This document shows positions 9,381-25,804 of a stretch of 33,211 nucleotides of DNA, in pieces (position 1 is the stretch's first letter; every line of letters starts with the position of its first letter). The translations under genes and the position numbers were made by a program. The notes beneath the pieces were generated by a model that did no database searches, was not told the origin of the DNA, and worked only from the letters and a program-made list of their open reading frames with translations. Where the stretch lies: positions 77,208 to 110,418 of the forward strand of contig JABUSF010000001.1 in assembly GCA_021443945.1 (NCBI GenBank), given 5' to 3'. Source of the DNA: Ileibacterium sp. Lineage in GTDB: Bacteria > Bacillota_I > Bacilli_A > Erysipelotrichales > Erysipelotrichaceae.

Positions 9381-10322
9381 TCAGGCCAGAGTGCTCCAGA
9401 AATGAGTGTCCAGGACAAATTCCTTGAAACGGGGCAGAGCAAAGCGGACCGCTCCTTTATAAGGGGTCATCAAAAGGCCCAGATTGATGAGATGCTGTTT
9501 GGCTGCATTGAAATCATTGGAATTCATGTCGGCAGCTTTGCGGATGTCTGTGATTTTCTCGCTTTCACTGACGGCAATGCAGGTGAGAATCTGCTGATCC
9601 AGCTGGCTGAGATCCTGCCAGATTTTACGGTACACCCGCTCATTCATAAACCGGTCAAAATCCCGTTTGGCTTCGTGAAGCGGGTAGTGGTTTTCACTGC
9701 ACAAAAAGCCAAGCACCTGAAAAGCATAAGGATACCCTTTTGTAAAGGCGGCCATTTTCTGGCTTTCCAGCACATCCACTTCCAGCTGATTCTGATAGGC
9801 TTGTGCCAAATCAGGAAGATACAGGGTTTCCAGGTAGACTCTCAGAGTGTTTTGGAGAAAGGCCATGGATTTGCATTTGAGCAGTTCAGCGCAGTTGTCC
9901 GTTCGTCCGGCCATCACCAGAAAGATGGGATATCCCTGGCTGTACCATTGTTCCAGACCCAGCAGAAATTCCTGGGGGATGGAAGGATGGGAAACGTTGT
10001 CCACGGCAATCAGAATGCGTTTCGGGGTGGTTTTCAGATCTTCTTCCAAAAGGCCGGCCTGCTGCAGTCGCTCCTTCAAATCGGCAAACATGTTTTTGTC
10101 CCGGTTCAGCTGGATCACCACCCAGTCTTTTTCGTTTTCAAAACGGTTGAGAATGTGACGCAGAGCAATGGTTTTTCCAGACCCCTGTGCCCCGGAAAGA
10201 ATGCAGACCCGGATGCAGGGATCTTCACTTAAGAACTCGGAATATAATTCGGCAAGGTAAACGTCCTGGCTGATGCGGCATTTGGGAATGCGGCCCAGAG
10301 ACAGAGTAAATGGATTCTTCAT
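9381..10322 (-). CDS. orphan P-loop NTPase (AAA+/ORC-Cdc6-like core) with a C-terminal winged-helix-like domain; function unknown
   Basis: Walker A is LSGAQGSGKT and Walker B-like is RILIAVDNV. The C-terminal segment LSQLDQQILTCIAVSESEKITDIRKAADMNSNDFNAAKQHLINLGLL looks like an HTH. AAGAGG SD lies 9 nt before the ATG at 10322; the ORF-track start at 10346 is TTG. Confidence 0.65.
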   Translation of the reverse strand: MKNPFTLSLGRIPKCRISQDVYLAELYSEFLSEDPCIRVCILSGAQGSGKTIALRHILNRFENEKDWVVIQLNRDKNMFADLKERLQQAGLLEEDLKTTPKRILIAVDNVSHPSIPQEFLLGLEQWYSQGYPIFLVMAGRTDNCAELLKCKSMAFLQNTLRVYLETLYLPDLAQAYQNQLEVDVLESQKMAAFTKGYPYAFQVLGFLCSENHYPLHEAKRDFDRFMNERVYRKIWQDLSQLDQQILTCIAVSESEKITDIRKAADMNSNDFNAAKQHLINLGLLMTPYKGAVRFALPRFKEFVLDTHFWSTLA

Positions 10323-10770
10323 ATCAAACAGCCTCTTCGTAATCAAATCTTTCTTTTTCTATAAGAATTTTCAGTTATAGGATTACATACTAACGATATT
10401 TTGCGCAGTTGGCTATATGTTTTTCGAAAATGAAAGAATCAATCGGTCAAGATAAGAAGAAATCCTGAACAGGGGATGGTTTCTTTGAAATGGGAAAACG
10501 CGGCAAATGGAAAGCAGGAAGCGGATTTCAAAAGAGGAAGGCGGTTTTGTTCGGCGTCAAAAGACGTGCTGTTTGATCCAAAAAAGGAAGAATTCTGCAT
10601 TTTCTCTCTGTGATTTTCAAGAGGTCCATAGGGGAAAACAGGATTGGAGGCTATTCTTAAAGAAGAAAACTGGAAGAAACTTTCAGTTCAGAACGATGAA
10701 GCTTTCTGTGAAATCTGAAAAACGGCACGGACAGCTTCAGCCTGCCAAAAAAGCAGGCAGAAAGGATTTG

Positions 10771-14047: not shown

Positions 14048-15091
14048 TTAGAGATCGTCGGTGATGGCGCCGGCTTTTGCATAGGCGGTGGATTTGGCTT
14101 CGAAGAAGTCTGTTTTGATATCGTTGGCATTGGCGTAAACATCCACCCAGGCCATGGAAGCCGGAATGTCTTCGTGGCCTTCGTACAGAGGGCTGAAGCC
14201 GAGCTGTTTGGCCCGCAGGTTTCCGAGGTAGAGGATGTAGTCTTCCACCATGTCCATGTTCAGGCCTTCGATGTCATTTCCGATGACATAGCGGGCCCAG
14301 TCGATTTCTTCCTGAACGCCTTTTTTGAGCATGGCTTTGTATTCTTCCACCAGCTCATCGGTAAACAGTTCCGGATTTTCCCGGCGCAGCTCGAGAATCA
14401 TGTTGCGGAACAGCCACAGATGGGTGTTTTCATCCCGGTTGATGTAGCGGATGTTCTGCACGCTGCCCGGCATTTTGCGGGTGCGGCCCAGGTTGTAGAA
14501 GAACATGAATCCGGAATAGAAGTAGATGCCTTCCAGAATGTAGTTGGCCATCATGGTCTTCATGAGCTGTTCCGGCGTTTTGTTTTCCAGAAAGTCGTTG
14601 TACAGGTTTCCGATGAATTCGTTTCTTTTCAAAAGGCGTTCGTCGTTTTTCCACTGGTACAGAATGTCATTGCGCTCTTCCGGGGAGCAGATGGTGTCCA
14701 GCATGTAGCTGTAGGCCTGAGAATGAACAGCTTCCTGGAAGGCCTGGATGGTCAGGCACAGGTTGACTTCGTTGGCGGTGATGTAGCTTCCAACGTTTGG
14801 CAGATTGGCCGTCTGCAGAGAGTCCAGGAACACAAGGAAGGACAGGGTTTTGTCGTAGGCTCTTTTTTCAGCGGGGCTGAGGTGGGAGCGGTAGTCCTTC
14901 AAATCCTGAGCCATGTTGATTTCTTCCGGGATCCAGAAGTTGTTCATGGCCTGACGGTACCAGCTGCTGGTCCATTCGTATTTCAGGTTGTTGAAATCAT
15001 TCAGGTTTGTGGTGTTTCCATTGATCATGGATCTTAAAGCCACATCTGTGTCGCCCTGGGCATTGAACAGGGCTTTTTCTTTGAGCTTCAT
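14048..15091 (-). CDS. nrdB: class I ribonucleotide reductase beta (radical-generating) subunit
   Basis: Ferritin-like di-metal motifs: FLDSLQ, QAFQEAVHSQAYSYM, ILEGIYFYSGF, RDENTHL. It lies directly downstream of the alpha subunit. AAAGGA SD is present. Confidence 0.9.
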   Translation of the reverse strand: MKLKEKALFNAQGDTDVALRSMINGNTTNLNDFNNLKYEWTSSWYRQAMNNFWIPEEINMAQDLKDYRSHLSPAEKRAYDKTLSFLVFLDSLQTANLPNVGSYITANEVNLCLTIQAFQEAVHSQAYSYMLDTICSPEERNDILYQWKNDERLLKRNEFIGNLYNDFLENKTPEQLMKTMMANYILEGIYFYSGFMFFYNLGRTRKMPGSVQNIRYINRDENTHLWLFRNMILELRRENPELFTDELVEEYKAMLKKGVQEEIDWARYVIGNDIEGLNMDMVEDYILYLGNLRAKQLGFSPLYEGHEDIPASMAWVDVYANANDIKTDFFEAKSTAYAKAGAITDDL

Positions 15092-15110
15092 GCTGTTTCC
15101 TTTCTAAATC

Positions 15111-17636
15111 CTATGCGCTGCAGGATTCGCACTCTTCCACTTCCAGAGACTGGGAACGGACATAGTAAATGGTTTTGAGTCCTTTTTCCCAGGCACGGAT
15201 GTAAAGATCGAGAACTTTACGGAAGGTGTAATCATTGGTGATGTACAGATTGACCGACTGACCCTGGTCGATGTGGCGCTGGCGGACGGCAGCGGAATCA
15301 ACCACCCAGTTCTGATCAATATGATGAGCATTTTTATAGTACCAGAAAGTTTCCGGACTTAAATCCGGTGCCACCCGTGTGAGCAGGCTGCCTTTCTTTT
15401 CTTCAATGAAGTATTTTTTCAAAATCGGATCCACGGCTGGTGTGGTTCCGGCCAGAATGGAGGTGGAGCTGGTGGGGGCGATGGCCATTAAATAGCCGTT
15501 GCGCAGTCCGGTTTCCCGGATCTGGGCAGCCAGTTCTTTCCATTTGTCACTGGTGTAGTCCCTTTTGTCAAAGTAAGCGCCGGTTTGGTATTCACTTCCT
15601 TCGAAGAACGCATAACTGCCTTTTTCTCTGGCCAGCTGGCTGGAGGCTTCCAGAGCATGGAAGTTGATCCGTTCATAAAGGTCATCCATGAACTCAAGGT
15701 GGCGTTCGTTTTCAAAAGGAATCTGGCGTTTGGCCAGCAGATGCTGGTAGCCGCTGGTGCCAAGGCCGATGGCCCGGTACTGCTGGTTTGTCATCTGAGC
15801 ATACGGCAGAGCGTAGTAGTTCAGATCGATGACGTTGTCCAGGGCACGGACAACCGTGAAGATCACGTCTTTAAGCTCCTCGTCGTTGTCGGTGTCAATT
15901 TTGGCAAGGGACAGACTGGCCAGGTTGCAGACCACAAAGTCACCAGGGATGGTGGTTTCCACCACTTGGCGCCGGCCGTCCTTTTCGATGATTTCAGGGT
16001 CGAGCACCTGCATGCTGGACATGTTCTGAGCGATTTCGGTGCACAGATTGCTGGAGTAGATCATGCCTTTGTGGCTGTTTGGGTTGGCGTAGTTGACCGC
16101 ATCCCGGTTGAAGACAAACGGTGTTCCGGTTTCCACCATGGATTTGATCAGCAGGCGGACGATTTCTTTGACGGGCATGACCCGTTTGGAGATGCTGGGG
16201 TCGGCCACGCATTCCAGATATTTTTCTTCCCAGTCCAGACCGTAGTGGTCTTCCAGGCTGTAGCCTTTTTTGACCAGAATTTCATGGGGATCCATCATGT
16301 TCCAGCTGCCGTCAATGTTGTTTTTAGCCAGACGCCAGAACAGATCCGGGAAGCAGACAGCCGGGAAGATGTCGTGGGCTTTTTTTCGGTCGTCTCCATT
16401 GTTGGTGCGCAGCTGCAGAAATTCCGGAAGGTCTTTGTGCCATACGTCCAGATAGACGGCGGCTGCTCCGGAGCGCACACCCAGCTGATCCACGGCTACG
16501 GCCGTGTCGTTGACCAGACGGATCCAGGGGATGACACCGCCGGCAGCGCCTTCAAAGCCCCGGATGTCGGAGCCGGATGCTCTGACTTTTCCAAAGTACA
16601 TGCCCATTCCGCCGCCAAATTTGGACACCTGAGCGAAGTTGGATACACTGCGGTAAATACCGGTTAAGGAGTCGTCCACCGTGTCGATGAAGCAGGAGCT
16701 CATCTGGTGGAACGGTTTTCTGGCGTTGGCCATGGTTGGGGTGGCCATGGTGACTTTCAGAGTGCTGAGCATATCGTAGAAGCGTTTGGCCCAGTAGACA
16801 GAATCTTCTTCCGGAATGGCCAGATGCATGGCAATGCCCATGAACATTTCCTGTACCCGCTCCAGCAGATGGCCCTGGTGATCCACCAGAAGATAGCGGC
16901 TTTTGAGCAGATCCAGGCCGGGATGCTTGAACAGATGACTGCGCTCCGGTTTGAGATAACAGGCCAGTTCAGCAATGTCATCCGGACTGTAGCGTTCCAG
17001 CAGCAAAGGTTCGATCAGTTTGTTTTCCTTCATCCAGGCCAGTTTGTCGTACCAGGTTTCAAAGCCAAGCTTTTCTTCCATGGCACTGACTTCCAGATCG
17101 ATGTTCAGGTTGAGCAGGCGGGCTGCAATGTCTTCCCATAAAGGGGCGTCCCGGCTGGTCAGTTCGCTGGCTGCCCGGATCAGGGATTCCATTTTCTGAG
17201 AATCGTCCATACCCTCCTTCAGGAAGGTGCGGACCTTCATCACCAGCTGTCCGGCGTCATATTCTTCATCGGTGAAGTCTTTTTGAATGTTGTGAAGAAC
17301 GTCTTTCAGATCATCCACAGGGCAGATGGCCAGCAGCTGATCCAGGTGGGCACGTTTTTTGGAGTGTTCAAAACGGTAAACAATGTAGGCTTTGGCTACG
17401 TCGTAGAAGCCTTCATCCAGCAGAAGAATTTCCACAATGTCCTGAATTTCCTCCACGGAAATTCCTTCGTAAAGTTTGTCTTCTGCTTTCAGTGCCATTT
17501 CAGCGATTTTTTCGGCCTCCACTTCCCGGCTGGTACTGGCCCAGGCTTTGGAAATAGCGGTCTCAATTTTGCTTCGGTGGTAGGGTTCCTGCAGGCCGCT
17601 GCGCTTGCAGATCCAATGTATGTTTGTAGATGCCAA
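15111..17636 (-). CDS. nrdA: class Ia ribonucleotide reductase alpha subunit with N-terminal ATP-cone
   Basis: The ATP-cone stretch is ICKRSGLQEPYHRSKIETAISKA...VAKAYIVYR. Catalytic core stretches are NLCTEI and the C-terminal ..ECESCSA. I prefer the TTG at 17636, which has AGAGGAG 8 nt upstream. In-frame alternatives are ATG 17669 (no SD, overlaps a -10-like TGTTTTAAT) and TTG 17699 (ORF track). Confidence 0.9.
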   Translation of the reverse strand: MASTNIHWICKRSGLQEPYHRSKIETAISKAWASTSREVEAEKIAEMALKAEDKLYEGISVEEIQDIVEILLLDEGFYDVAKAYIVYRFEHSKKRAHLDQLLAICPVDDLKDVLHNIQKDFTDEEYDAGQLVMKVRTFLKEGMDDSQKMESLIRAASELTSRDAPLWEDIAARLLNLNIDLEVSAMEEKLGFETWYDKLAWMKENKLIEPLLLERYSPDDIAELACYLKPERSHLFKHPGLDLLKSRYLLVDHQGHLLERVQEMFMGIAMHLAIPEEDSVYWAKRFYDMLSTLKVTMATPTMANARKPFHQMSSCFIDTVDDSLTGIYRSVSNFAQVSKFGGGMGMYFGKVRASGSDIRGFEGAAGGVIPWIRLVNDTAVAVDQLGVRSGAAAVYLDVWHKDLPEFLQLRTNNGDDRKKAHDIFPAVCFPDLFWRLAKNNIDGSWNMMDPHEILVKKGYSLEDHYGLDWEEKYLECVADPSISKRVMPVKEIVRLLIKSMVETGTPFVFNRDAVNYANPNSHKGMIYSSNLCTEIAQNMSSMQVLDPEIIEKDGRRQVVETTIPGDFVVCNLASLSLAKIDTDNDEELKDVIFTVVRALDNVIDLNYYALPYAQMTNQQYRAIGLGTSGYQHLLAKRQIPFENERHLEFMDDLYERINFHALEASSQLAREKGSYAFFEGSEYQTGAYFDKRDYTSDKWKELAAQIRETGLRNGYLMAIAPTSSTSILAGTTPAVDPILKKYFIEEKKGSLLTRVAPDLSPETFWYYKNAHHIDQNWVVDSAAVRQRHIDQGQSVNLYITNDYTFRKVLDLYIRAWEKGLKTIYYVRSQSLEVEECESCSA

Positions 17637-17746
17637 TTTTATTTCTCCTCTATCGTAAACTCTCTCCATTAAAACAAAGTGGATGAAAACAATCCACAAA
17701 CCAACAGGGGCGAAAACCTTTACAGAAAAGATCTTCTTGATGGTTT

Positions 17747-17802: not shown

Positions 17803-17849
17803 CAGGTATATACAATTGTAGTCTCCTTAAGAAGGATTGACTAGTTTGT

Positions 17850-17867
17850 GAAAACGAACTTGTTTTC
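17850..17867. promoter_or_regulatory. imperfect 18-bp palindrome GAAAACGAACTTGTTTTC (AAAAC-N6-GTTTT), candidate operator
   Basis: 7 of 9 arm positions are complementary. It shares its arms with the perfect palindrome at 18032-18049. It contains a partial Cheo-box-like CGAAC-N4-TTTC. Confidence 0.4.
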
Positions 17868-18031
17868 AGATTGACGGAAACAGGACACTCTTTTTTTCAA
17901 GTGCGGGAATTCTTTACTGGTGTAAAATTTTTGCGTACAGATTGCATAAAACAGGCATAAAATGCTTTTTTCATGCCGATTTGGTAAGAAATAAAAGCTT
18001 TTTTAACGCATCGTGCATATTCCCTGTGCAC

Positions 18032-18049
18032 AAAAACAAGCTTGTTTTT
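18032..18049. promoter_or_regulatory. perfect 18-bp palindrome AAAAACAAGCTTGTTTTT, candidate auto-operator of repressor A
   Basis: A perfect inverted repeat that ends 6 nt before the extended -10 of the downstream HTH-S24 gene. Confidence 0.5.
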
Positions 18050-18055
18050 TTCCTT

Positions 18056-18064
18056 TGTTATACT
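18056..18064 (+). promoter_or_regulatory. extended -10 promoter TGtTATACT placed 6 nt before the ATG (leaderless-type)
   Basis: TGTTATACT-gtgagc-ATG. There is no SD between the -10 and the start. Confidence 0.5.
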
Positions 18065-18070
18065 GTGAGC

Positions 18071-18670
18071 ATGATTAACCTACAAAAAGCACTGCAGACA
18101 TTCAAACGGCAGAACAGAGTGAATAATTCCTATATTGCAGAATATTGTGACGTATCTCTGCCAACCGTTTCCCGCTGGTGCAGCGGTAAGATTCAAAATG
18201 CTGCTCCTGCAACGCTGGAAAAGCTCCTGGAGATGATGGGGCTTGATTCCGAAGAAGCGAAAACTGTTCATGGTCTTTCCCCGGAAAAACCTATGATCGG
18301 CTGCATGGAGCCCGGTACCGGCTTGCTTGACGAAATCAACAGGGAGGGATATATACAAGTCACTCAGGAAGATGCCAAAGGCGGAGACTTCTTTATGAAA
18401 ATGAAGGGTGATTCCATGAAGGATGAAAATATTCGGGATGGAGCACTGCTTTATGTAAAACGCTGCAGAGACGTAGCAGACAATGTTCCTGCGGTGCTGA
18501 GAGTTCACAATGAGCTGACGGTCCGCAGACTTCTGAAAAAAGAAGGCTACTGGATTCTGCAGGCGGCAAACAGTGATGTGGAACCTCTTGTCTATACGGA
18601 AGAGGATATTGAATCCATGCCGGTGGAACTGGTGGGAAAAGTGGTCTATGCCCGCCAGGATTTTGAGTAA
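18071..18670 (+). CDS. LexA/HdiR-like repressor paralog A (XRE-type HTH + S24 peptidase fold) with degenerate cleavage site and catalytic Lys
   Basis: MINLQKALQTFKRQNRVNNSYIAEYCDVSLPTVSRWCSGK... aligns without gaps to paralog B. GDSMKD is retained. It has MEPGTG where LexA and paralog B have Ala-Gly, and TVRRL where they have TVK(R/K)L. The ORF-track start at 17942 is an extension not supported by the paralog alignment. Confidence 0.8.
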   Translation: MINLQKALQTFKRQNRVNNSYIAEYCDVSLPTVSRWCSGKIQNAAPATLEKLLEMMGLDSEEAKTVHGLSPEKPMIGCMEPGTGLLDEINREGYIQVTQEDAKGGDFFMKMKGDSMKDENIRDGALLYVKRCRDVADNVPAVLRVHNELTVRRLLKKEGYWILQAANSDVEPLVYTEEDIESMPVELVGKVVYARQDFE

Positions 18671-18686
18671 CAAAACATGGTTTTAA

Positions 18687-18716
18687 AAAGCGGGACAGAT
18701 CATCTCGCTTTTTTTC
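18687..18716 (+). terminator. intrinsic terminator after repressor A
   Basis: AAAGCGGGA-cagatca-TCTCGCTTT followed by TTTTTCTG. Confidence 0.7.
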
Positions 18717-18726
18717 TGACTCCCGC

Positions 18727-18752
18727 AAAAAATCCGCCCCAAAACGAGGCGG
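18727..18752 (-). terminator. intrinsic terminator after the alcohol dehydrogenase gene
   Basis: The minus strand reads CCGCC-tcgttttgg-GGCGG followed by ATTTTTTG. Confidence 0.55.
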
Positions 18753-18761
18753 AAAAGAAGG

Positions 18762-19880
18762 TTATTGCTTGTTTGTCTGTACCAAAGCAGGTTGATTGGC
18801 TTCTTTTAACAAAACGTACTGATCATGGTCCGCTGCCAGAGCTTTCAGCTGATGCTTTTTCAGAACCAGTCCGGTGTCGGGAATGCAGACCGCCATTTTC
18901 ATGTTTTTGACCCGCTGCATCAGAGCATCAAGACCCTGCTGACTGGCTTTGGCTTCATCGGCTTCTTCAATGCCAAAGAGAGTTTTGGCAAACAGAGCCA
19001 GCTTTTGGGAGAAGGCTGGAATCTGCTGCCGGCTCCAGGCAAAGAACAATGCGGAGGTGGCAGTTCCTCTTGGCAGAGAGCACTGGTAGGACAGGGTGTC
19101 GGCCAGTTTGTTTAAATCTCCCTGAATGGTCTGCTTGAACTGATGGGCTTCCAGCCCCACTTGAAACAGAGAGGTTCTGGCTTTGGGATCTTCAATGTTG
19201 ACTTCAAGGGCTTTGGCGCATTCCAGGAGGCTCTGCATCATTTCCAGATCCTTCTGTCCATCGGCATCATTGCTGGCCAGATAGCGAATGAAGATGTAGG
19301 AGAAAATGCCGAACACCTGGTTCATGGTCGGATAGTAGGGAAGCATGGACAGGGTGGGATCCAGCACCGCAAAAGCGCATTCCCCATAGGGGGAGTGAAG
19401 GCTTTTCTGTTTTCCGTCCCGAACCAGCGTGCATTCATCGTTGAGCTCTGCTCCTGTGGCCGGATTGGTTAAGACTGCCGCAACGGGAGCGGCGCCTTTG
19501 GGCTGGATTTTTCCTTCCCACATGTCCCAGAGCTTTCCGTCTTTTTTATCGAATTTCAGTCCATAGGCGATGCCTTTGGCACACTGCAGAGTGCTGCCGC
19601 CGCCTAGAGAAAGGATCATGTCGCATCCTTCTTCCTGGGCTTTGCGAACGCCCCGCTTGACGGAAGAAAATTTCGGGTTTGGAAGGATTTGGCCCAAATC
19701 GGTATGGGGGATTCCCGCTTCTGTTAAAAGAACGCGGACTTTTTCCAAAAGGCCGTCTTCCACCGGCCGGTGGCCATGGACCAGTAATGGATGCTGGCCG
19801 TGAGCCCGTATTAAATCAGGAAGATCCTGAAGAGCATTAATGCCAATGCTGATTTTTGTGTTGGAGTGTTCTGTTTTCAT
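18762..19880 (-). CDS. iron-containing (group III) alcohol dehydrogenase family protein
   Basis: LLVHGHRP....NPKFSSVKRGVRKAQEEGCDMILSLGGGSTLQCAKGIAYG shows the Fe-ADH nucleotide-binding pattern. The 372 aa length fits. Confidence 0.8.
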   Translation of the reverse strand: MKTEHSNTKISIGINALQDLPDLIRAHGQHPLLVHGHRPVEDGLLEKVRVLLTEAGIPHTDLGQILPNPKFSSVKRGVRKAQEEGCDMILSLGGGSTLQCAKGIAYGLKFDKKDGKLWDMWEGKIQPKGAAPVAAVLTNPATGAELNDECTLVRDGKQKSLHSPYGECAFAVLDPTLSMLPYYPTMNQVFGIFSYIFIRYLASNDADGQKDLEMMQSLLECAKALEVNIEDPKARTSLFQVGLEAHQFKQTIQGDLNKLADTLSYQCSLPRGTATSALFFAWSRQQIPAFSQKLALFAKTLFGIEEADEAKASQQGLDALMQRVKNMKMAVCIPDTGLVLKKHQLKALAADHDQYVLLKEANQPALVQTNKQ

Positions 19881-19886
19881 GGATTT

Positions 19887-19895
19887 ATTGTAGCA
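19887..19895 (-). promoter_or_regulatory. extended -10 promoter TGcTACAAT placed 6 nt before the ATG (leaderless-type)
   Basis: The minus strand reads TGCTACAAT-aaatcc-ATG, with no SD. Confidence 0.45.
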
Positions 19896-19954
19896 ATGGG
19901 GAAGAGGGGCTGGAATTGGAATGATTCAGCCGCCCAAATGAGCCATCTGCATGC

Positions 19955-19992
19955 AAAAAGGCCGCCCATTTTGAAATGAGCAGCCTTTTTTT
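19955..19992. terminator. intrinsic terminator after nrdD (symmetric A/T flanks)
   Basis: The minus strand reads GGCTGCTCAT-ttcaaa-ATGGGCGGCC (two G-U pairs) followed by TTTTTGCATG. On the + strand a T7 run follows the same stem. Confidence 0.75.
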
Positions 19993-20021
19993 GTTATCGA
20001 TACAGGGAACGGAAGACCGGT

Positions 20022-22196
20022 TTAAAGGTGAGTGACACGTTCCTTGATTTCCTGGGTTCTTCCCTGGTTCCAGAACTGTGTTCCAATGTAGCCGCAAGTT
20101 CTTCTTGCGACGTTCATTTTTTCCTGATCACGGTTTCCGCAGTTCGGGCATTCCCAGACGAGTTTGTGGTTTTCGTCTTCCACAATCTGGATTTCGCCTT
20201 CGTAACCGCATTCCTGACAATAGTCAGATTTAGTGTTCAGCTCGGCGTACATGATGTTGTCATAGATGTGACGGATCAAAGCCATGACAGCCGGCAGGTT
20301 GTTCTCCATGTTTGGAACTTCTACATAAGAGATGGCTCCGCCCGGAGAAAGTTTCTGGAACTGGGATTCGAATGTCAGTTTGGTAAAGGCATCGATTGGT
20401 TCCGTAACATGTACGTGATAGGAGTTGGTGATGTAGTTTTTGTCGGTAACGCCTGGAATGATTCCAAAACGATCCTGCAGTTTTTTTGCAAACTTGTAGG
20501 TTGTGGATTCCATTGGGGTGCCGTACAGGGAGAAGTCCATATTGTTCTGAGCTTTCCATCTTGCACAGGCGGCGTTCAGGTATTCCATGATGCGTTTTGC
20601 AAAGGCGCATCCTGTTGGCTGAGTATGAGGTTCACCGGTCATATAGCGGACAGCTTCTGTCAGACCGGCATAGCCAAGGGAGATGGTGGAGTAACCGCCG
20701 TAGAGCAGTTTGTCGATGGTTTCGCCTTTTTTCAGACGGGCGAGAGCACCGTTCTGCCACAGAATGGGAGCCACATCGCTTGGTGTGCCAAGCAGACGTT
20801 TATGACGAATCATCAGAGCGCGGTAGCACAGGTCAAGGCGTTCGTCCATAATGCGCCAGAATTCCTTTTCGTCCCCTTTGGAGGAGCAGGCAACATCCAC
20901 CAGATTGATGGTGACAACACCCTGGTTGAAACGGCCGTAATATTTTGGATTGCCCTGGGCATCCACGTACGGAGTCAGGAAGCTGCGGCATCCCATGCAT
21001 GGATAGCACTGTCCATCGCCGTTCTGGTCGACTTTCAGCTTCAGCATCATTTTTTCGGAGATGTAGTCCGGAACCATGCGTTTGGCGGTGCATTCGGCAG
21101 CCAGTTTTGTCAGATAGTAGTATTCGCTGTCTTCGTGAATGTTGTTTTCTTCCAGAACGTAAATCAGTTTTGGGAAGGCTGGTGTGATGTACACACCTTT
21201 TTCGTTTTTCACACCTTTGATTCTCTGTTTGAGAACTTCTTCAATGATTTTTGCCAGGTCTTTGCGGGTCTGAGGATCTTCAACTTCGTTCAGGTACATG
21301 CTGACGGTGATGAAGGGGGCCTGACCATTGGTTGTCATCAGAGTGATGACCTGATACTGAATGGTCTGCACACCGCGTTCGATTTCCTTCTGAACACGCA
21401 TTTCGGCAATTTCGTTTACCGTTGTCTCGTCGGTAGGAAGGTTCATAGCTTCCAGCTCTTCTTTGACTTCACGGCGGGCCTTTTCACGGGACATCTGAAC
21501 GAATGGAGCCAGGTGGCTCAGAGTAATAGACTGTCCGCCGTACTGAGAACTTGCAACCTGGGCAATGATCTGGGTGGCGATGTTGCAGGCGGTAGAGAAG
21601 CTCTGAGGTTTTTCGATCATGGTTTCAGAAATCACGGTTCCGTTCTGAAGCATGTCTTCCAGATTGACCAGACAGCAGTTGTGCATGTGCTGGGCAAAGT
21701 AGTCGGAATCGTGGAAATGAATGATTCCCTGATCGTGAGCTTCCATGATGTCGTGATCCACCAGGAAACGGCGGGTGATGTCTTTGGAAACTTCACCGGC
21801 CATATAATCACGCTGTACAGAGTTTACAAGAGGATTCTTGTTGGAATTCTCCTGTTTTACTTCTTCATTGTTTCTTTCCAGCAGAGACATAATCTGCTGG
21901 TCTGTAGAGTTGGACTTTCTGACCAGAGCTCTTTCATATCGATATGTAATGTAGTTTTTGGCAACGGCATAGAATCCCATCGCCATGATGGTGGCCTCTA
22001 CCAGGTCCTGAATTTCTTCTACACCAGGGGAGCGGGTCATGTTTTCCAGCTTTTCGCCAACCACAGCAGCTGCGTGAAGAACTTGTTCTTCTGTCATCTG
22101 ATCATGGGTTGTAGCTTTATTTGCTTTGCGGATCGCATTTTCGATTTTCGCAATATTGAAAATAACTTCTTCGCCGCTTCGTTTGATTACTTTCAT
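20022..22196 (-). CDS. nrdD: anaerobic (class III) ribonucleoside-triphosphate reductase
   Basis: N-terminal ATP-cone MKVIKRSGEEVIFNIAKIENAIRKA. C-terminal Zn-ribbon CQECG...CPNCG and glycyl-radical motif RRTCGYIG. Strong SD GAGGAGGAG. Confidence 0.95.
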   Translation of the reverse strand: MKVIKRSGEEVIFNIAKIENAIRKANKATTHDQMTEEQVLHAAAVVGEKLENMTRSPGVEEIQDLVEATIMAMGFYAVAKNYITYRYERALVRKSNSTDQQIMSLLERNNEEVKQENSNKNPLVNSVQRDYMAGEVSKDITRRFLVDHDIMEAHDQGIIHFHDSDYFAQHMHNCCLVNLEDMLQNGTVISETMIEKPQSFSTACNIATQIIAQVASSQYGGQSITLSHLAPFVQMSREKARREVKEELEAMNLPTDETTVNEIAEMRVQKEIERGVQTIQYQVITLMTTNGQAPFITVSMYLNEVEDPQTRKDLAKIIEEVLKQRIKGVKNEKGVYITPAFPKLIYVLEENNIHEDSEYYYLTKLAAECTAKRMVPDYISEKMMLKLKVDQNGDGQCYPCMGCRSFLTPYVDAQGNPKYYGRFNQGVVTINLVDVACSSKGDEKEFWRIMDERLDLCYRALMIRHKRLLGTPSDVAPILWQNGALARLKKGETIDKLLYGGYSTISLGYAGLTEAVRYMTGEPHTQPTGCAFAKRIMEYLNAACARWKAQNNMDFSLYGTPMESTTYKFAKKLQDRFGIIPGVTDKNYITNSYHVHVTEPIDAFTKLTFESQFQKLSPGGAISYVEVPNMENNLPAVMALIRHIYDNIMYAELNTKSDYCQECGYEGEIQIVEDENHKLVWECPNCGNRDQEKMNVARRTCGYIGTQFWNQGRTQEIKERVTHL

Positions 22197-22241
22197 TTAA
22201 TGCTCCTCCTCACTCTTCATTTTGTGATCAGTTTCTCAAAT

Positions 22242-22288
22242 AAATCCCTAGGGATTTAAAGAGGGAGATCAATGACGACTCCCTCTTT
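22242..22288 (-). promoter_or_regulatory. structured nrdD 5' leader: 10-bp hairpin (AAAGAGGGAG/CTCCCTCTTT) followed by the palindrome AAATCCCTAGGGATTT
   Basis: Both elements are perfect inverted repeats, lying 45-90 nt upstream of the nrdD ATG. The CUCCCUCUUU arm is also complementary to the nrdD SD region. Confidence 0.45.
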
Positions 22289-22492
22289 AATTGATTGCTG
22301 ATTTCCAGCTCAGTATACATGCTTTTAGCAGGCAGGAATATGGAAAAGGTTAACTTGAATTAAAATTTCGAAAAAAAAGCCTTTTTTGATTCTTTTGAAA
22401 AATTTTCCTGCAAGCGTGAATAATATGACATAAATAGTCAGGATTCTTGAACTATCTGCTTGTGATCATTTGAACGAATCAAAAGGCTGTTT

Positions 22493-22533
22493 CGGAAATC
22501 TCGCCTGAAAAAGGGGAGATTTCCGTCTTTTTT
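22493..22533 (+). terminator. strong hairpin whose T-tract is on the + strand, abutting the stop of minus-strand repressor B
   Basis: CGGAAATCTC(g)CC-tgaaaaag-GGGAGATTTCCG followed by TCTTTTTT on the + strand. On the minus strand the stem is followed by GAAACAGCCTTTTG, a poor U-tract. Confidence 0.6.
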
Positions 22534-23130
22534 CTATAACTCTGTTTTGGAATACACCGCTCTGCCAATGATCTGCACAGGCAGACCTACAATGTCCTGC
22601 AGAGTGTATTCTTTGTCTTCCACTTCATCGTTGGCTGCATGAAGCACCCAGGAGCTGTCTTTTTTGACGAGTTTTTTAACGGTGACTTCCTCTCCGCCAA
22701 TGAGCATGACTGCAATGGCGCCGGAAGGCACGTCTGTACAGGATTTTACAAACAGAAGATCCCCGTCATGAATGTGGGCATCTTTCATCGAATCACCTGT
22801 TACCCTTAAAAAATAGTCCCCTCTTCGGTCATCGTCTTCTGAAACGCCTATGTATCCCTCCAAATTTTCTTCGGCAAGAAGACCGTAACCGGCTTTTACC
22901 GTTCCCAGAATCGGTTTTTCAGGAGCCAGCTGGCTGATGCGGGTCATGTCGTCCATATTGACACCCAGCATTTCAGTAAGCTTTTCCAGAGTTTTTGGAT
23001 CAATCTTGCGGATTTTACCGGTGCACCAGCGGGAAACGGTGGATTTAGTAACGCCGCAGTACTCGGCGATGTAGTCGTTTGTAATATTGTTTTGTCGCTT
23101 GTACTGACTTAAAAGGTCCTGTATCTTCAT
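22534..23130 (-). CDS. LexA/HdiR-like SOS repressor paralog B (XRE-type HTH + intact S24 self-cleaving peptidase domain)
   Basis: GTVKAGYGLLAEENLEGY matches LexA GRVAAGEPLL..IEGH and keeps Ala-Gly. GDSMKD carries the Ser nucleophile and EVTVKKLVKK the general-base Lys. It is divergent from a Y-family polymerase gene. Confidence 0.85.
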   Translation of the reverse strand: MKIQDLLSQYKRQNNITNDYIAEYCGVTKSTVSRWCTGKIRKIDPKTLEKLTEMLGVNMDDMTRISQLAPEKPILGTVKAGYGLLAEENLEGYIGVSEDDDRRGDYFLRVTGDSMKDAHIHDGDLLFVKSCTDVPSGAIAVMLIGGEEVTVKKLVKKDSSWVLHAANDEVEDKEYTLQDIVGLPVQIIGRAVYSKTEL

Positions 23131-23136
23131 GGCTCA

Positions 23137-23145
23137 AGTATATCA
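23137..23145 (-). promoter_or_regulatory. extended -10 promoter TGaTATACT placed 6 nt before the ATG (leaderless-type)
   Basis: The minus strand reads TGATATACT-tgagcc-ATG, the same architecture and -10 hexamer as paralog A. Confidence 0.5.
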
Positions 23146-23243
23146 AAGAGGGCAGGGGATGAAAATAAAAAGCGCAACTATCGAGCAAATTCATGATTCA
23201 GACGCGTTTGTTTGATTAAATACGCATAAGCCACGCAACATTA

Positions 23244-23272
23244 TTGAAAAATGAAGAACGCCTGTCTATGAT
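23244..23272 (+). promoter_or_regulatory. promoter TTGAAA-17 nt-TATGAT placed 6 nt before the polymerase ATG (leaderless-type), with a GAAC-N4-GTCT element in the spacer
   Basis: TTGAAA at 23244-23249, TATGAT at 23267-23272 and ATG at 23279. The spacer contains AGAACGCCTGTCT, a partial match to the Firmicutes GAAC-N4-GTTC SOS box. Confidence 0.5.
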
Positions 23273-23278
23273 AGAAGC

Positions 23279-24541
23279 ATGAAACGGGTTATCGTACACA
23301 GCGACATCAACCACTGCTATGCCCAGCTGGAGGAGATGAGAGATCCCTCTTTGCGCAATATCCCCATGGCAGTGGGAGGAAGCGAAGAAAAAAGACATGG
23401 AATCATTCTGGCCAAAAACGATCTGGCGAAAACATATGGGATTAAAACCGGAGAGTCGCTGCGGCAGGCGAAAGCCAAATGTCCGCAGCTGCTGATCATT
23501 CACCCGGATTACGACAGCTATATGTACTATACGGAAAAGGTGAAAGACATTTACCGCCAGTATACAGATCAGGTGGAATCTTTCGGCTTGGATGAGGCCT
23601 GGATGGATTTAACCCATTCCCAGCTTCTTTTTGGAGACGGCATTGAGCTGGCGCAGAAAATTCAGGACGAAGTTTATCAGAAGCTTGGCCTGACCGTTTC
23701 CATGGGGGTTTCCTTTAACAAAGTCTTTGCCAAACTGGCCAGCGATTTGTTCAAGCACAAAGGGTTCGCTCTGATTACGGAGGACAATTTTCAGCAGATG
23801 GTATGGCCTTTGCCGGTGGAAGAGCTGCTGATGGTGGGCTCGAGAACGAAAAAAAAGCTGAACGAGATGGGGATTTACACCATCGGAAGCCTGGCCGCTG
23901 CCCATCCGGAGCTGCTGTCCAAACGCTTTGGGGTGATGGGTCTGCTGCTGAAAAGGTATGCAGCCGGAGAAGATGACACCCCTGTCCGTCACAAGGACTA
24001 TCAGCGGCCGGTGAAGTCGGTGGGCTGTTCCAAGACAGTGGTCAAGGACATTGAAAGCATCGGCCAGCTGCAGGAAGTCTTCCGGGTTTTAGCAGAGACG
24101 GCAGCGGTGCGCTTAAAGGCGGATCATTACAAAGGCAGCGTGGTCAGCATCTGGCTGCGGGATACGGATTTAAAGGGAAAAGGTCTGCAGATGAAGCTGT
24201 CTCAGTCCACGGATCTGGCCCGTGATCTTTTAAATGCGGCCATGCAGCTGGTGTACAAACTGAATCTGGAGGAGATCAAGCTTCGTTCCGTCGGCATTCA
24301 TGTGAGCGGTCTGGTGCATAAGGCGGATGTGGACCAACTGGATTTGTTTACACCTCCCGATGACAGAATCCGCCAGCGGGCTCTGGAAAAGACCATGTAT
24401 GAAATTCGGAAGCAGTATGGCTATGACAGCTGCCGTTTTGCTTCTTCCAAAGTGGATGCGGAAATCACAGACTTTGATCCGCTGGGTCTGCTGCATCAGG
24501 TGCACCCGGTCGGGGTGCTGGACGGACCGGTTAAAGTATGA
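23279..24541 (+). CDS. Y-family (UmuC/DinB-like) translesion DNA polymerase
   Basis: VIVHSDINHCYAQLE, GLDEAWMDLT and VSMGVSFNKVFAKLASD are Y-family palm and finger motifs. The 420 aa length fits. Confidence 0.9.
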   Translation: MKRVIVHSDINHCYAQLEEMRDPSLRNIPMAVGGSEEKRHGIILAKNDLAKTYGIKTGESLRQAKAKCPQLLIIHPDYDSYMYYTEKVKDIYRQYTDQVESFGLDEAWMDLTHSQLLFGDGIELAQKIQDEVYQKLGLTVSMGVSFNKVFAKLASDLFKHKGFALITEDNFQQMVWPLPVEELLMVGSRTKKKLNEMGIYTIGSLAAAHPELLSKRFGVMGLLLKRYAAGEDDTPVRHKDYQRPVKSVGCSKTVVKDIESIGQLQEVFRVLAETAAVRLKADHYKGSVVSIWLRDTDLKGKGLQMKLSQSTDLARDLLNAAMQLVYKLNLEEIKLRSVGIHVSGLVHKADVDQLDLFTPPDDRIRQRALEKTMYEIRKQYGYDSCRFASSKVDAEITDFDPLGLLHQVHPVGVLDGPVKV

Positions 24542-24804
24542 ATGTGTTTAAGTATTACGTGGATGTGGTCACCCTCATTTTAAAGGATGGGGTTCTGCAG
24601 CCCTTGGCGGTGGTGTGGATGGACCGGCGCTATAAAGTGGATAAGGTTCTCTCGGTTCGGGAAACCTACTCCAAAGCCGGCGGCAGCGGCATTTGCTACC
24701 GGTGTCTGTTTGGCGGTCAGGAGCGCAGCCTGTTCTGGGAGCGCAACCGCTGGTTTCTCGAATCAGAAACTTTCATTCCCGAACTTCTGGAAAAAAATCA
24801 TTAG
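24538..24804 (+). CDS. 88-aa hypothetical protein translationally coupled to the Y-family polymerase
   Basis: There is an ATGA start/stop overlap with the polymerase gene, the strand is the same, and a terminator follows. I recognise no family (MNVFKYYVDVVTLILKDGVLQPLAVVWMDRRYKVDK...). Confidence 0.55.
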   Translation: MNVFKYYVDVVTLILKDGVLQPLAVVWMDRRYKVDKVLSVRETYSKAGGSGICYRCLFGGQERSLFWERNRWFLESETFIPELLEKNH

Positions 24805-24824: not shown

Positions 24825-24848
24825 ACTCACCGGCCTGGTGAGTTTTTA
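24825..24848. terminator. bidirectional intrinsic terminator between convergent genes
   Basis: AAAAA-ACTCACC-ggcc-GGTGAGT-TTTTATTT. Confidence 0.75.
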
Positions 24849-25553
24849 TTTAGAATCGGGCTGGGCTTTCAGAAGCAGATCCGGGTTGGGGCTGCAAAAG
24901 GAGAGCAGCTGAGCAGAAGACCATTTGTTAACCTGGCTTAGAAAATCCCGAGCGGTCAGGGCGGCCAGGGTCCGGCCCGTCAGAGTGAACTGAAAATAGC
25001 TGGAAAGAAGATGGACGATGGCAAGGCTTCTGTCCAGATAGGAAGAAGAAGTCGGAGTGCAGCGGCCTTTGATCACATCCCGGATGGGTTTTTCGATTTG
25101 GCCGAACACAGGCTTTAAGTGCTCCGAAGAATCAAGGAGTTCAAAAAGCTGCAGGATGTATTTTTCCTTCAGAAGGTTTTTGTACTGGGCAATGCTGGCG
25201 TTCTGCAAAGTAGTGCACAGCAGCCACACCATCAGAACTTCCACATTGTGCAGGTAGGAATCTTTTTTTCCAAACCGGGCTTCACACCGTCCAATCCATT
25301 TTTTCATCCAGTCCGAACCGGCGATGAAAGCACTGGCGTCTTCAATTTTTTCACTCCAGTGCCTGGACTCGATTTGGCATTCTCTTTCAAACTGCCTTCT
25401 GGAAAGTCCTGACAACGCGCAAAGGGTGTCTGTCAGTTCTTCCAGGCTGGAGTTACGGGTGCCGGACATCGAGGTGTAGAGGTAAATGCGGGCCAGCTTT
25501 CCCGGATGGCTTCGCTCCTGTCTGGCCAGATTTAAAATCTGCGTATCGTTCAT
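24846..25553 (-). CDS. hypothetical all-alpha-looking protein (235 aa), no family recognised
   Basis: A long ORF with AAAGGA SD 8 nt before the ATG at 25553; the ORF-track start at 25574 is GTG. A possible HTH-like stretch is LCALSGLSRRQFERE. Confidence 0.55.
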   Translation of the reverse strand: MNDTQILNLARQERSHPGKLARIYLYTSMSGTRNSSLEELTDTLCALSGLSRRQFERECQIESRHWSEKIEDASAFIAGSDWMKKWIGRCEARFGKKDSYLHNVEVLMVWLLCTTLQNASIAQYKNLLKEKYILQLFELLDSSEHLKPVFGQIEKPIRDVIKGRCTPTSSSYLDRSLAIVHLLSSYFQFTLTGRTLAALTARDFLSQVNKWSSAQLLSFCSPNPDLLLKAQPDSK

Positions 25554-25804
25554 GATGGTTTTCCTTTGCTTCACTCTAGCATGCCTGTCTTTTAATCAGC
25601 ATCTTTTTCTTGGGGAAATGCTTGATTGCTTTAAACAAAGCATTTTTAAACGAAAAAGAGATCTTTCATGAAATTCATAGGGGAAGCAGTCTGGACAGAA
25701 GTATTAATCAGCCTCATCTTTTCACCGAAGTGCAGGTTGGACTGCTTTTGAAAAGAAGAATACGGAAGAAATATGGTATAACTAGCGGTAGAAATGGAGA
25801 AATT

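Follow-up and report, generated by a model that had tools for sequence, protein, structure and literature searches.

A naturally occurring LexA/HdiR-like repressor of Ileibacterium sp. that has probably lost self-cleavage, encoded beside an intact paralog

Self-cleavage is treated as a defining property of LexA-like repressors (PMC7101444, PMC8565304). What, then, has become of such a repressor when its cleavage site and catalytic Lys have changed while an intact copy is kept in the same genome? This question is raised by a 33,211-nucleotide stretch of DNA from Ileibacterium sp., a member of the Erysipelotrichaceae (contig JABUSF010000001.1, positions 77,208 to 110,418; here called the window, to which all coordinates refer unless another locus is named). 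The window encodes two related proteins, A and B, each with an N-terminal helix-turn-helix (HTH) domain of the XRE type and a C-terminal S24 domain. Their surroundings include two sets of ribonucleotide reductase (RNR) genes and a gene for an Fe-type alcohol dehydrogenase (adh), the gene order being nrdB-nrdA (minus strand), A (plus), adh (minus), nrdD (minus) and B (minus). The main genes are as follows (aa, amino acids).

14048-17636, minus strand: nrdA (15111-17636) and nrdB (14048-15091), class I ribonucleotide reductase; nrdA has a TTG start and an AGGAG Shine-Dalgarno sequence.
18071-18670, plus strand: paralog A, 199 aa, XRE-HTH and S24 fold, with Pro81-Gly82, Ser115, Arg152 and Ala125.
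20022-22196, minus strand: nrdD, anaerobic ribonucleotide reductase, downstream of B and co-directional with it.
22534-23130, minus strand: paralog B, 198 aa, XRE-HTH and S24, HdiR-like, with Ala80-Gly81, Ser114 and Lys152 intact.

Both HTH-S24 open reading frames (ORFs) were found at the positions and on the strands given in a first-pass annotation of the window, and its estimate that roughly half of their residues are identical agrees with BLASTP (47% identity, 70% positives, E = 3e-71). The end-to-end alignment, described there as free of gaps, is nearly so, having an N-terminal offset of one residue and a single 1-residue gap. It had also been claimed that the P1 Ala and the general-base Lys are missing from A, which keeps GDSM, and that B retains Ala-Gly, Ser and Lys; the column assignments bear out both claims. 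In a phmmer comparison with the E. coli LexA structures (E = 2e-12), E80-P81-G82 of A fell in the A83-A84-G85 column of LexA, S115 (within GDSMKD) in the S119 column, as it did in the alignment of relatives, and R152 in the K156 column, as in the MAFFT and survey alignments. The codons had been quoted correctly, with CCC at 18311-18313 for Pro81 (CCC GGT at 18311-18316 for Pro81-Gly82) and CGC at 18524-18526 for Arg152. K156 and K157 of A align with K160 and Q161 of LexA, outside the catalytic column, in which no Lys of A is found. The corresponding residues of B are A80-G81, S114 and K152. Among relatives, the cleavage, Ser and Lys columns read PG/S/R in 3 of 3 A-type sequences and AG/S/K in 9 of 9 B-type sequences. 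All three A-type sequences share MEPGTG, TVRRL and DGALL, Ala125 of A taking the place of the conserved Asp in the family's DGDLL.

The S24 fold is nevertheless kept in A. Peptidase_S24 (PF00717) matches it over the full length of the profile (1-116) with 62.4 bits, compared with 86 bits for B, and an AlphaFold2 (AF2) model of A (predicted local distance difference test score, pLDDT, 71) matches the C-terminal domains of LexA, UmuD' and lambda CI (Foldseek, E down to 3e-10), the LexA structures 1JHF, 1JHH and 1JHE being among the best matches. The N-terminal HTH is of the Cro/CI type in both proteins, with HTH_3 scoring 43.2 bits in B and 23.0 bits, right at the cut-off, in A. Against the canonical LexA model TIGR00498, whose cut-off of 110.95 is a whole-protein score that requires a winged-helix N-terminal domain, A and B reach 56.7 and 84.2 bits, and the C-terminal domain alone matches. 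Neither A nor B is a canonical LexA, their N-terminal domain being XRE-type.

The duplicate A is restricted to one lineage, having been seen in this species and a sister species and nowhere else. A search of 5.8 billion proteins returned one relative at 99% and one at 90% identity, the next being B-type proteins at 44–51%. Nothing nearer than 46% was present among 1.84 billion representatives, no A-type copy in the 185,579 species-representative genomes, where the best match is 47%, and no A-type gene in two scans of JGI metagenomes. In a neighbour-joining tree based on Kimura distances, with bootstrap, A and its sister-species copy nest within the clade of B-type proteins from Allobaculum, Ileibacterium and the window (bootstrap 84–99), and the A branch is long (root-to-tip 1.27 versus about 0.8 in others, roughly 1.6 times). 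When columns at least 95% conserved among 20 close B-types were considered, 27 of 71 were altered in A. Most of them cluster around the cleavage loop and the active site, at positions 76, 79–81, 83, 87 and 89 of the cleavage loop (now I76, M79, E80, P81, T83, D87 and I89), positions 107 and 109–111 of the strand adjacent to the nucleophile, Asp125 (now Ala), and changes within 136–145 and 149–155, the Lys among the latter. Between the window and the sister species, A has a ratio of nonsynonymous to synonymous substitution rates (dN/dS) of 0.049 at a dS of 1.29, with amino-acid identities of 96% in the HTH and 87% in the S24 domain; the adjacent nrdA has a dN/dS of 0.13. These figures point to a duplicate that changed rapidly at first and is now strongly constrained, not to a pseudogene. 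Since invariant columns have changed and yet dN/dS is 0.05, A is likely a maintained and very probably non-self-cleaving repressor.

Similar losses were found elsewhere in the subfamily. In a survey, 126 of 138 representatives combined Ala-Gly, Cys-Gly or Gly-Gly with the Ser and the Lys, and about ten were degenerate; the P1 residue was Ala, Cys or Gly in 128 of 141 aligned sequences. Lys was replaced by Arg in four degenerate representatives (P0024, P0031, P0049 and P0155; the genomic contexts of P0024 and P0031 are short contigs), in which the Ala-Gly site or the Ser was usually missing too. The cleavage apparatus is thus lost rarely but repeatedly, the cases being independent. Because the change to Arg recurs in members in which the site or the Ser is lost, Arg may be a structural stand-in rather than a catalytic residue.

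Building on the observed sequence features, phylogeny, selection, synteny and motif enrichment, we consider it probable that A is a maintained repressor which no longer cleaves itself, uses its S24 domain for dimerisation only and is blind to the RecA signal, regulating its own gene and possibly affecting nrdAB. It would have arisen by recent duplication of a B-type repressor, promoter included. In a burst of change the cleavage loop (with Pro for Ala at P1) would have been reshaped together with the general base (Arg for Lys) and the cleft around them, and strong purifying selection would have held the protein since that burst. A would then repress stably, with the S24 fold retained merely as a dimerisation module, and, being unable to cleave itself, would stay switched on in the face of DNA damage. 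Its most likely target is its own leaderless promoter, and it may, less certainly, influence the divergent nrdAB, its only conserved neighbour.

B is best read as an ordinary repressor, found throughout the family and HdiR-like in architecture. A genome scan identified the B family in Allobaculum, Ileibacterium, Faecalibaculum, Catenisphaera, Absicoccus, Erysipelothrix and others, with orthologs of 58–70% identity in the closest genera (L008-L021). When the window proteins were mapped onto 44 Erysipelotrichaceae loci, all intact copies had the Ser and the Lys, and all had Ala-Gly except two with Gly-Gly. A gene for a Y-family polymerase, which went unmentioned in the first-pass annotation, is divergent from B, and this arrangement is kept in most of the loci L008-L051. 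The features of this region are listed below.

23137-23165, minus strand: B promoter, TTTTCA-17-TATACT with a TG extension; the -10 ends 6 nt before the ATG.
23223-23237, unstranded: operator-like direct repeat of the family type, CGCATAAGCCACGCA (on the B strand TGCGTGGCTTATGCG), just upstream of the polymerase -35.
23244-23272, plus strand: polymerase promoter, TTGAAA-17-TATGAT; the -10 ends 6 nt before the ATG.
23279-24541, plus strand: Y-family (IMS/DinB-UmuC type) polymerase gene, divergent from B; Pfam IMS (6e-43) and IMS_C, NCBIfam DNA polymerase IV subfamily.
24538-24804, plus strand: 88-aa ORF overlapping the polymerase stop codon (ATGA).

The polymerase is presumed to be the main target of B. 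As B has the architecture described for HdiR (PMC8565304), our reading is that it is HdiR-like, is cleaved in response to damage and represses a minimal mutagenesis cassette. It would repress itself and the polymerase cassette, and would be removed after DNA damage by RecA-stimulated self-cleavage. The 88-aa ORF accompanies the polymerase gene in most Erysipelotrichaceae loci (35–74% identity); it belongs to no Pfam, NCBIfam or PHROG family, and its product may serve the polymerase as an uncharacterised accessory factor. On the 3' side of the cassette lies a 242-aa ORF (24846-25574, minus strand) without a significant match in Pfam, NCBIfam or PHROG, and weak relatives of it (23–24% identity) are found at the corresponding position in L009 and L018. 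The metagenome-assembled genome JAJQFG01 (L033, L036) also carries two XRE-S24 paralogs, one of them beside the polymerase gene. Both have Ala-Gly, Ser and Lys, so that carrying two copies need not mean loss of cleavage.

The regions 5' of the B orthologs have in common a direct repeat with an 11-bp period, for example ATGCAACTTTTATGCAAC, ACGCAACTTTTGTGCAAC and CGCACTTTTTGTGCA. The pattern YGCRHY-N5-YGCR was present in 13 of 13 B-upstream regions, including those of loci without the polymerase, versus 1.4–1.7% of background windows (160-nt windows from the same loci). The window copy at 23223-23237 fits the relaxed form YGCR-N7-YGCR only, for which the 33-kb window has three sites: 17932-17946, 23223-23237 and one within nrdD. 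In A, B and the polymerase gene 6 nt separate the end of the -10 from the ATG and a Shine-Dalgarno sequence is lacking, so their mRNAs look leaderless (18056-18073, 23128-23145 and 23267-23281); B orthologs in 13 genomes (L008-L021) have the same -10-to-ATG design as B. The repeat is therefore a candidate operator between two apparently leaderless promoters. LexA sites of the Cheo-box type (CGAAC-N4-GTTCG) were also considered and rejected, being not enriched (10 observed, 11 expected).

The 434-bp spacer between nrdA and A was aligned with that of the sister species (L001, 78–80% nucleotide identity) and contains the following elements.

17815-17843, minus strand: likely nrdAB promoter, TAGTCA-17-TACAAT (promoter scan); both hexamer regions are kept in the sister species.
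17851-17866, unstranded: perfect palindrome AAAACGAACTTGTTTT, just upstream of the nrdA -35.
17932-17946, unstranded: operator-like repeat of the family type, TGCGTACAGATTGCA.
18033-18048, unstranded: perfect palindrome AAAACAAGCTTGTTTT, over the A -35 region; candidate A operator.
18056-18064, plus strand: A promoter, extended -10 TGTTATACT, 6 nt before the ATG; conserved in the sister species.

Within otherwise diverged DNA, the blocks conserved between the two species are the nrdA promoter, the extended -10 of A, TGTGCA and AAAACAAGCT. The core promoters of A and B are alike (TTTGtTATACT..GAGC.ATG in A, TTTGaTATACT..GAGCCATG in B). The repeat at 17932-17946 is the sole strict match to the B-type motif in the window (P about 0.017 with shuffled spacer), and the sister species has a matching element, TGCGCAGATTTCGCA (L001 1393-1407). 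The repeat reads TTTTTcTGCG-CAGATTT-CGCA in the sister species and TTTTTGCG-TACAGAT-TGCA in the window, a 2-nt shift of the spacer keeping the 11-bp register. The control region of A thus retains a family-type site, which is consistent with the promoter having been included in the duplication. The two palindromes are the only exact matches to AAAAC-N6-GTTTT in the window, where 0.08 would be expected; as conserved A operators they were rejected, neither being conserved in the sister species, and they remain candidates only. The leader of nrdA is roughly 170 nt long and has the AGGAG Shine-Dalgarno sequence, unlike those of A, B and the polymerase gene. It also contains a terminator-like hairpin with a T-run (17679-17697, minus strand), about 40 nt before the start codon, that could be an attenuator; the sister species lacks this segment. 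Rfam gave no riboswitch or known RNA in the window.

A stretch of 26 nt with one mismatch (A, 18164-18189; B, 23015-23040), which encodes the putative recognition helix TVSRWC(S/T)GK, had been taken in the first-pass annotation as a hint of related operator specificity. The near-identity exists, and its length exceeds that expected from synonymous-codon resampling (P about 0.002; third-position identity is 39% overall), but it is not a signal specific to A and B. The B ortholog of Allobaculum fili (L018) reads ACC GTT TCC CGC TGG TGC AGC GGA AAG and equals A at 25 of 26 positions; the codons GTT, TGG and TGC hardly vary among the close genera, and the TVSRW core of TVSRWC-GK is invariant across these genera although their upstream repeats differ. 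As an ortholog from another genus shares 25 of 26 nt with A, the stretch reflects family-wide codon conservation of the TVSRWC-GK scaffold, and gene conversion as its origin is rejected. In the AF2 model, helices span residues 16–26 and 30–38 of A, the latter being the recognition helix. Its first two residues are L30-P31 in A and K-S in B, and A is altered at the family-invariant HTH columns T18N, T29S and S31P. Specificity positions in the 434 and lambda repressors are Q28/Q29 and Q44/S45, respectively, to which the start of the recognition helix may be likened. With LP in place of KS, and with S31P and T29S at invariant columns, a shared operator specificity of A and B cannot be assumed; the hint is weakened, and A probably has its own or an overlapping set of operators.

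The layout of the window is repeated in contigs of the same species at 99.9% identity. In the sister species the divergent arrangement of nrdA and A is kept, and a methyltransferase gene, not adh-nrdD-B, lies downstream of A. The inverted pair bracketing adh-nrdD, although its gene order is as first described, is therefore specific to this species, and the conserved unit is A with nrdAB. One contig of a strain of the same species (L004, 99.5% identity; 14312-15697, versus window position ~18820) leaves the synteny inside the 3' end of adh. Past the break it holds unrelated sequence without known domains, A-nrdAB not being adjacent to adh-nrdD-B in that strain or assembly.

That each paralog lies beside RNR genes had suggested damage-linked control of both sets. 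The adjacency itself stands: A is divergent from nrdAB, and a co-directional nrdD follows B in 13 closer loci, four of them without the polymerase. However, nrdD has its own -10 and -35 in every locus examined, and a clear terminator follows B in most of the B-nrdD loci. The B-type repeat is missing from 10 of 12 B-nrdD spacers and from that of the window. In the window, B is followed by this element:

22493-22525, unstranded: hairpin directly after the B stop codon, with a weak U-tract on the B strand.

As the hairpin has no good U-tract on that strand, some read-through into nrdD may occur. In seven loci (L012, L015, L016, L017, L019, L020 and L021) a palindrome, TAGTTGAA-N4-TTCAACTA, follows the nrdD -10 and precedes the start codon; it looks like a site of the Rex/FNR type or an RNA hairpin and has no match in Rfam. 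The window lacks it and has instead a perfect 12-bp hairpin in the nrdD leader (22256-22290). In Allobaculum fili (L018 9135-12179), the nrdD match is in two pieces separated by a gap of about 876 nt (9491 to 10368), suggesting an intron, an intein or another insertion.

Several observations weigh against the view of A as a maintained repressor that no longer cleaves itself. Its loss of cleavage is drawn from sequence alone, and its repression and targets are deduced in the same way; the AF2 model is of only medium confidence. Retention of Ser115 and the GDSM motif is left unexplained if catalysis is gone. Lin and Little reportedly found in 1989 that LexA K156R undergoes some autodigestion at very high pH, so that Arg alone is no proof of inactivity. 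A occurs in just two closely related species, for which synteny with nrdAB could be simple inheritance. The repeat near A is 125–139 bp from the A start and overlaps neither core promoter, and of the palindromes the sister species keeps only the left half (AAAACAAGCT) of 18033-18048 and lacks the segment holding 17851-17866. Finally, the sister-species A has W36G/C37V (TVSRGVSGK; L001 1605-1610, codons 36-37), by which a near-invariant Trp is lost; as the L001 contig has 2.4x coverage, this may be a sequencing error, or alternatively a real loss of DNA binding.

Some of these points would be accommodated if A were still cleaved, with Arg152 as the base, at another bond, or in trans by the active site of B. 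Gly82 is kept along with Ser115 and GDSM, and some S24 proteins, UmuD among them, are capable of cleavage in trans. We nevertheless regard continued cleavage as very unlikely, since no functional member has Pro at P1 (Ala, Cys or Gly in 128/141), the cleavage loop and the strand next to the nucleophile have been rewritten, and Lys to Arg recurs where the site or the Ser is also lost (P0024, P0031 and P0155). That A is a functionless relic of the duplication or of a degraded mobile element is hardly credible, even though its catalytic residues are lost, its Pfam scores are below those of B, its distribution is very narrow and the synteny on its side is missing from one strain contig. A dN/dS of 0.049 over a dS of 1.29, with the reading frame intact and the promoter conserved in both species, argues against decay. 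As to a mobile origin, no phage or mobile-element genes and no compositional island were found nearby, A groups among chromosomal B-types and not among phage repressors, and the PHROG matches are to generic repressor families only.

A different possibility is that A has no regulon of its own and works mainly through B, forming mixed S24 dimers with it or competing for its operators, and so acts as a damage-insensitive brake on the polymerase cassette. The 47% identity across the whole S24 domain, the mostly identical recognition helix, the homology of the two promoters, and the presence of the window's only two intergenic family-type repeats, both beginning TGCGT, in the control regions of A and B would all suit such a role. 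Against it, the first two residues of the recognition helix and two more invariant HTH columns differ, the 27 changed columns include surface positions, so that the interfaces may not be compatible, and the conserved neighbour of A is nrdAB rather than the polymerase cassette; we think it rather unlikely. The two repressors might also form a circuit in which B senses damage and A, being itself under a family-type operator, would rise once B is destroyed and, either by itself or in mixed dimers with B, bind related operators again, thereby capping or resetting the polymerase and linking nrdAB to the aftermath of damage. If this were true, a natural 'Ind-' paralog would be the built-in governor of a minimal SOS system, a scheme that we consider improbable. 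Equally doubtful is the damage-linked control of RNR proposed in the first-pass annotation, by which B would act on nrdD and A on nrdAB. It draws on the B-nrdD adjacency in the 13 genomes, on the divergent A and nrdA in both A-bearing species, and on the operator-like repeat and two palindromes in their spacer. Opposed to it are the separate promoters of nrdD, the terminators after B, the different palindrome found in seven loci, the scarcity of the B-type repeat in B-nrdD spacers and the restriction of the palindromes near nrdA to the window; moreover, if A is uncleavable, no damage signal could pass through it by the classical route. Control of RNR by A or B stays hypothetical, and a maintained, damage-blind repressor remains our preferred reading of A.

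Uncleavable LexA-like repressors are known mainly as laboratory mutants, and A would be a natural, selected case beside an intact copy. It would indicate that a simple repressor that only dimerises can be built on the S24 scaffold, and the A/B pair may provide a compact natural system for finding out what a minimal SOS circuit gains from a copy blind to damage. A limited literature search gave nothing relevant on how the Erysipelotrichaceae respond to DNA damage, a topic which appears essentially unstudied; a by-product of this analysis is the definition, across this family of common gut bacteria, of a cassette pairing an HdiR-like repressor with a polymerase, for which a direct repeat is the candidate operator. 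Since A is known from only two uncultured species, practical impact is limited, and the locus is of moderate interest to SOS specialists.

Among known systems, HdiR of the Streptococcaceae is a phage-like S24 repressor of itself and of an error-prone polymerase, with a minimal regulon (PMC8565304). B resembles HdiR of Lactococcus and Streptococcus in its phage-CI-like HTH and S24 domains, Ala-Gly site, Ser-Lys dyad and adjoining Y-family polymerase gene. It differs in coming from the Erysipelotrichaceae and in its putative operator, an 11-bp-period repeat between leaderless promoters, and it is likened to HdiR by architecture, being known from its genes alone. A is fundamentally different from HdiR, having neither the cleavage site nor the Lys. 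Like A, IrvR of S. mutans is a second XRE-HTH/S24 regulator beside an SOS-type one (HdiR); as is proposed for A, it has a non-SOS role, and it adjoins its target gene (PMC7101444). However, IrvR keeps Ser224, Lys260 and Ala-Gly and undergoes constitutive self-cleavage that is essential for its function (PMC7101444), whereas A has lost both the site and the Lys.

The phage 186 CI repressor matches the A model more weakly (Foldseek, E = 4e-4 to 2e-3; 13–15% identity). Its C-terminal domain resembles the S24 fold, as does that of A, and it is not known to be inactivated by self-cleavage, induction going through an antirepressor. In contrast to A, which is chromosomal, recent and derived from a cleavable ancestor, 186 CI is phage-borne and forms a different oligomer. 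The LexA1 and LexA2 proteins of Pseudomonas putida and Leptospira are, so far as is known, all canonical winged-helix repressors with intact cleavage determinants. These pairs are like A and B in placing two S24 repressors in one genome, and each paralog has its own regulon, as cited in PMC3901139 (ref. 184) and PMC4756842. In the Ind- mutants of LexA (G85D, S119A and K156A) the same columns are affected as in A. Those, however, are laboratory or point mutants of the only LexA of the cell, whereas A is natural and selected, stands beside an intact copy and carries 27 changes at family-invariant columns.

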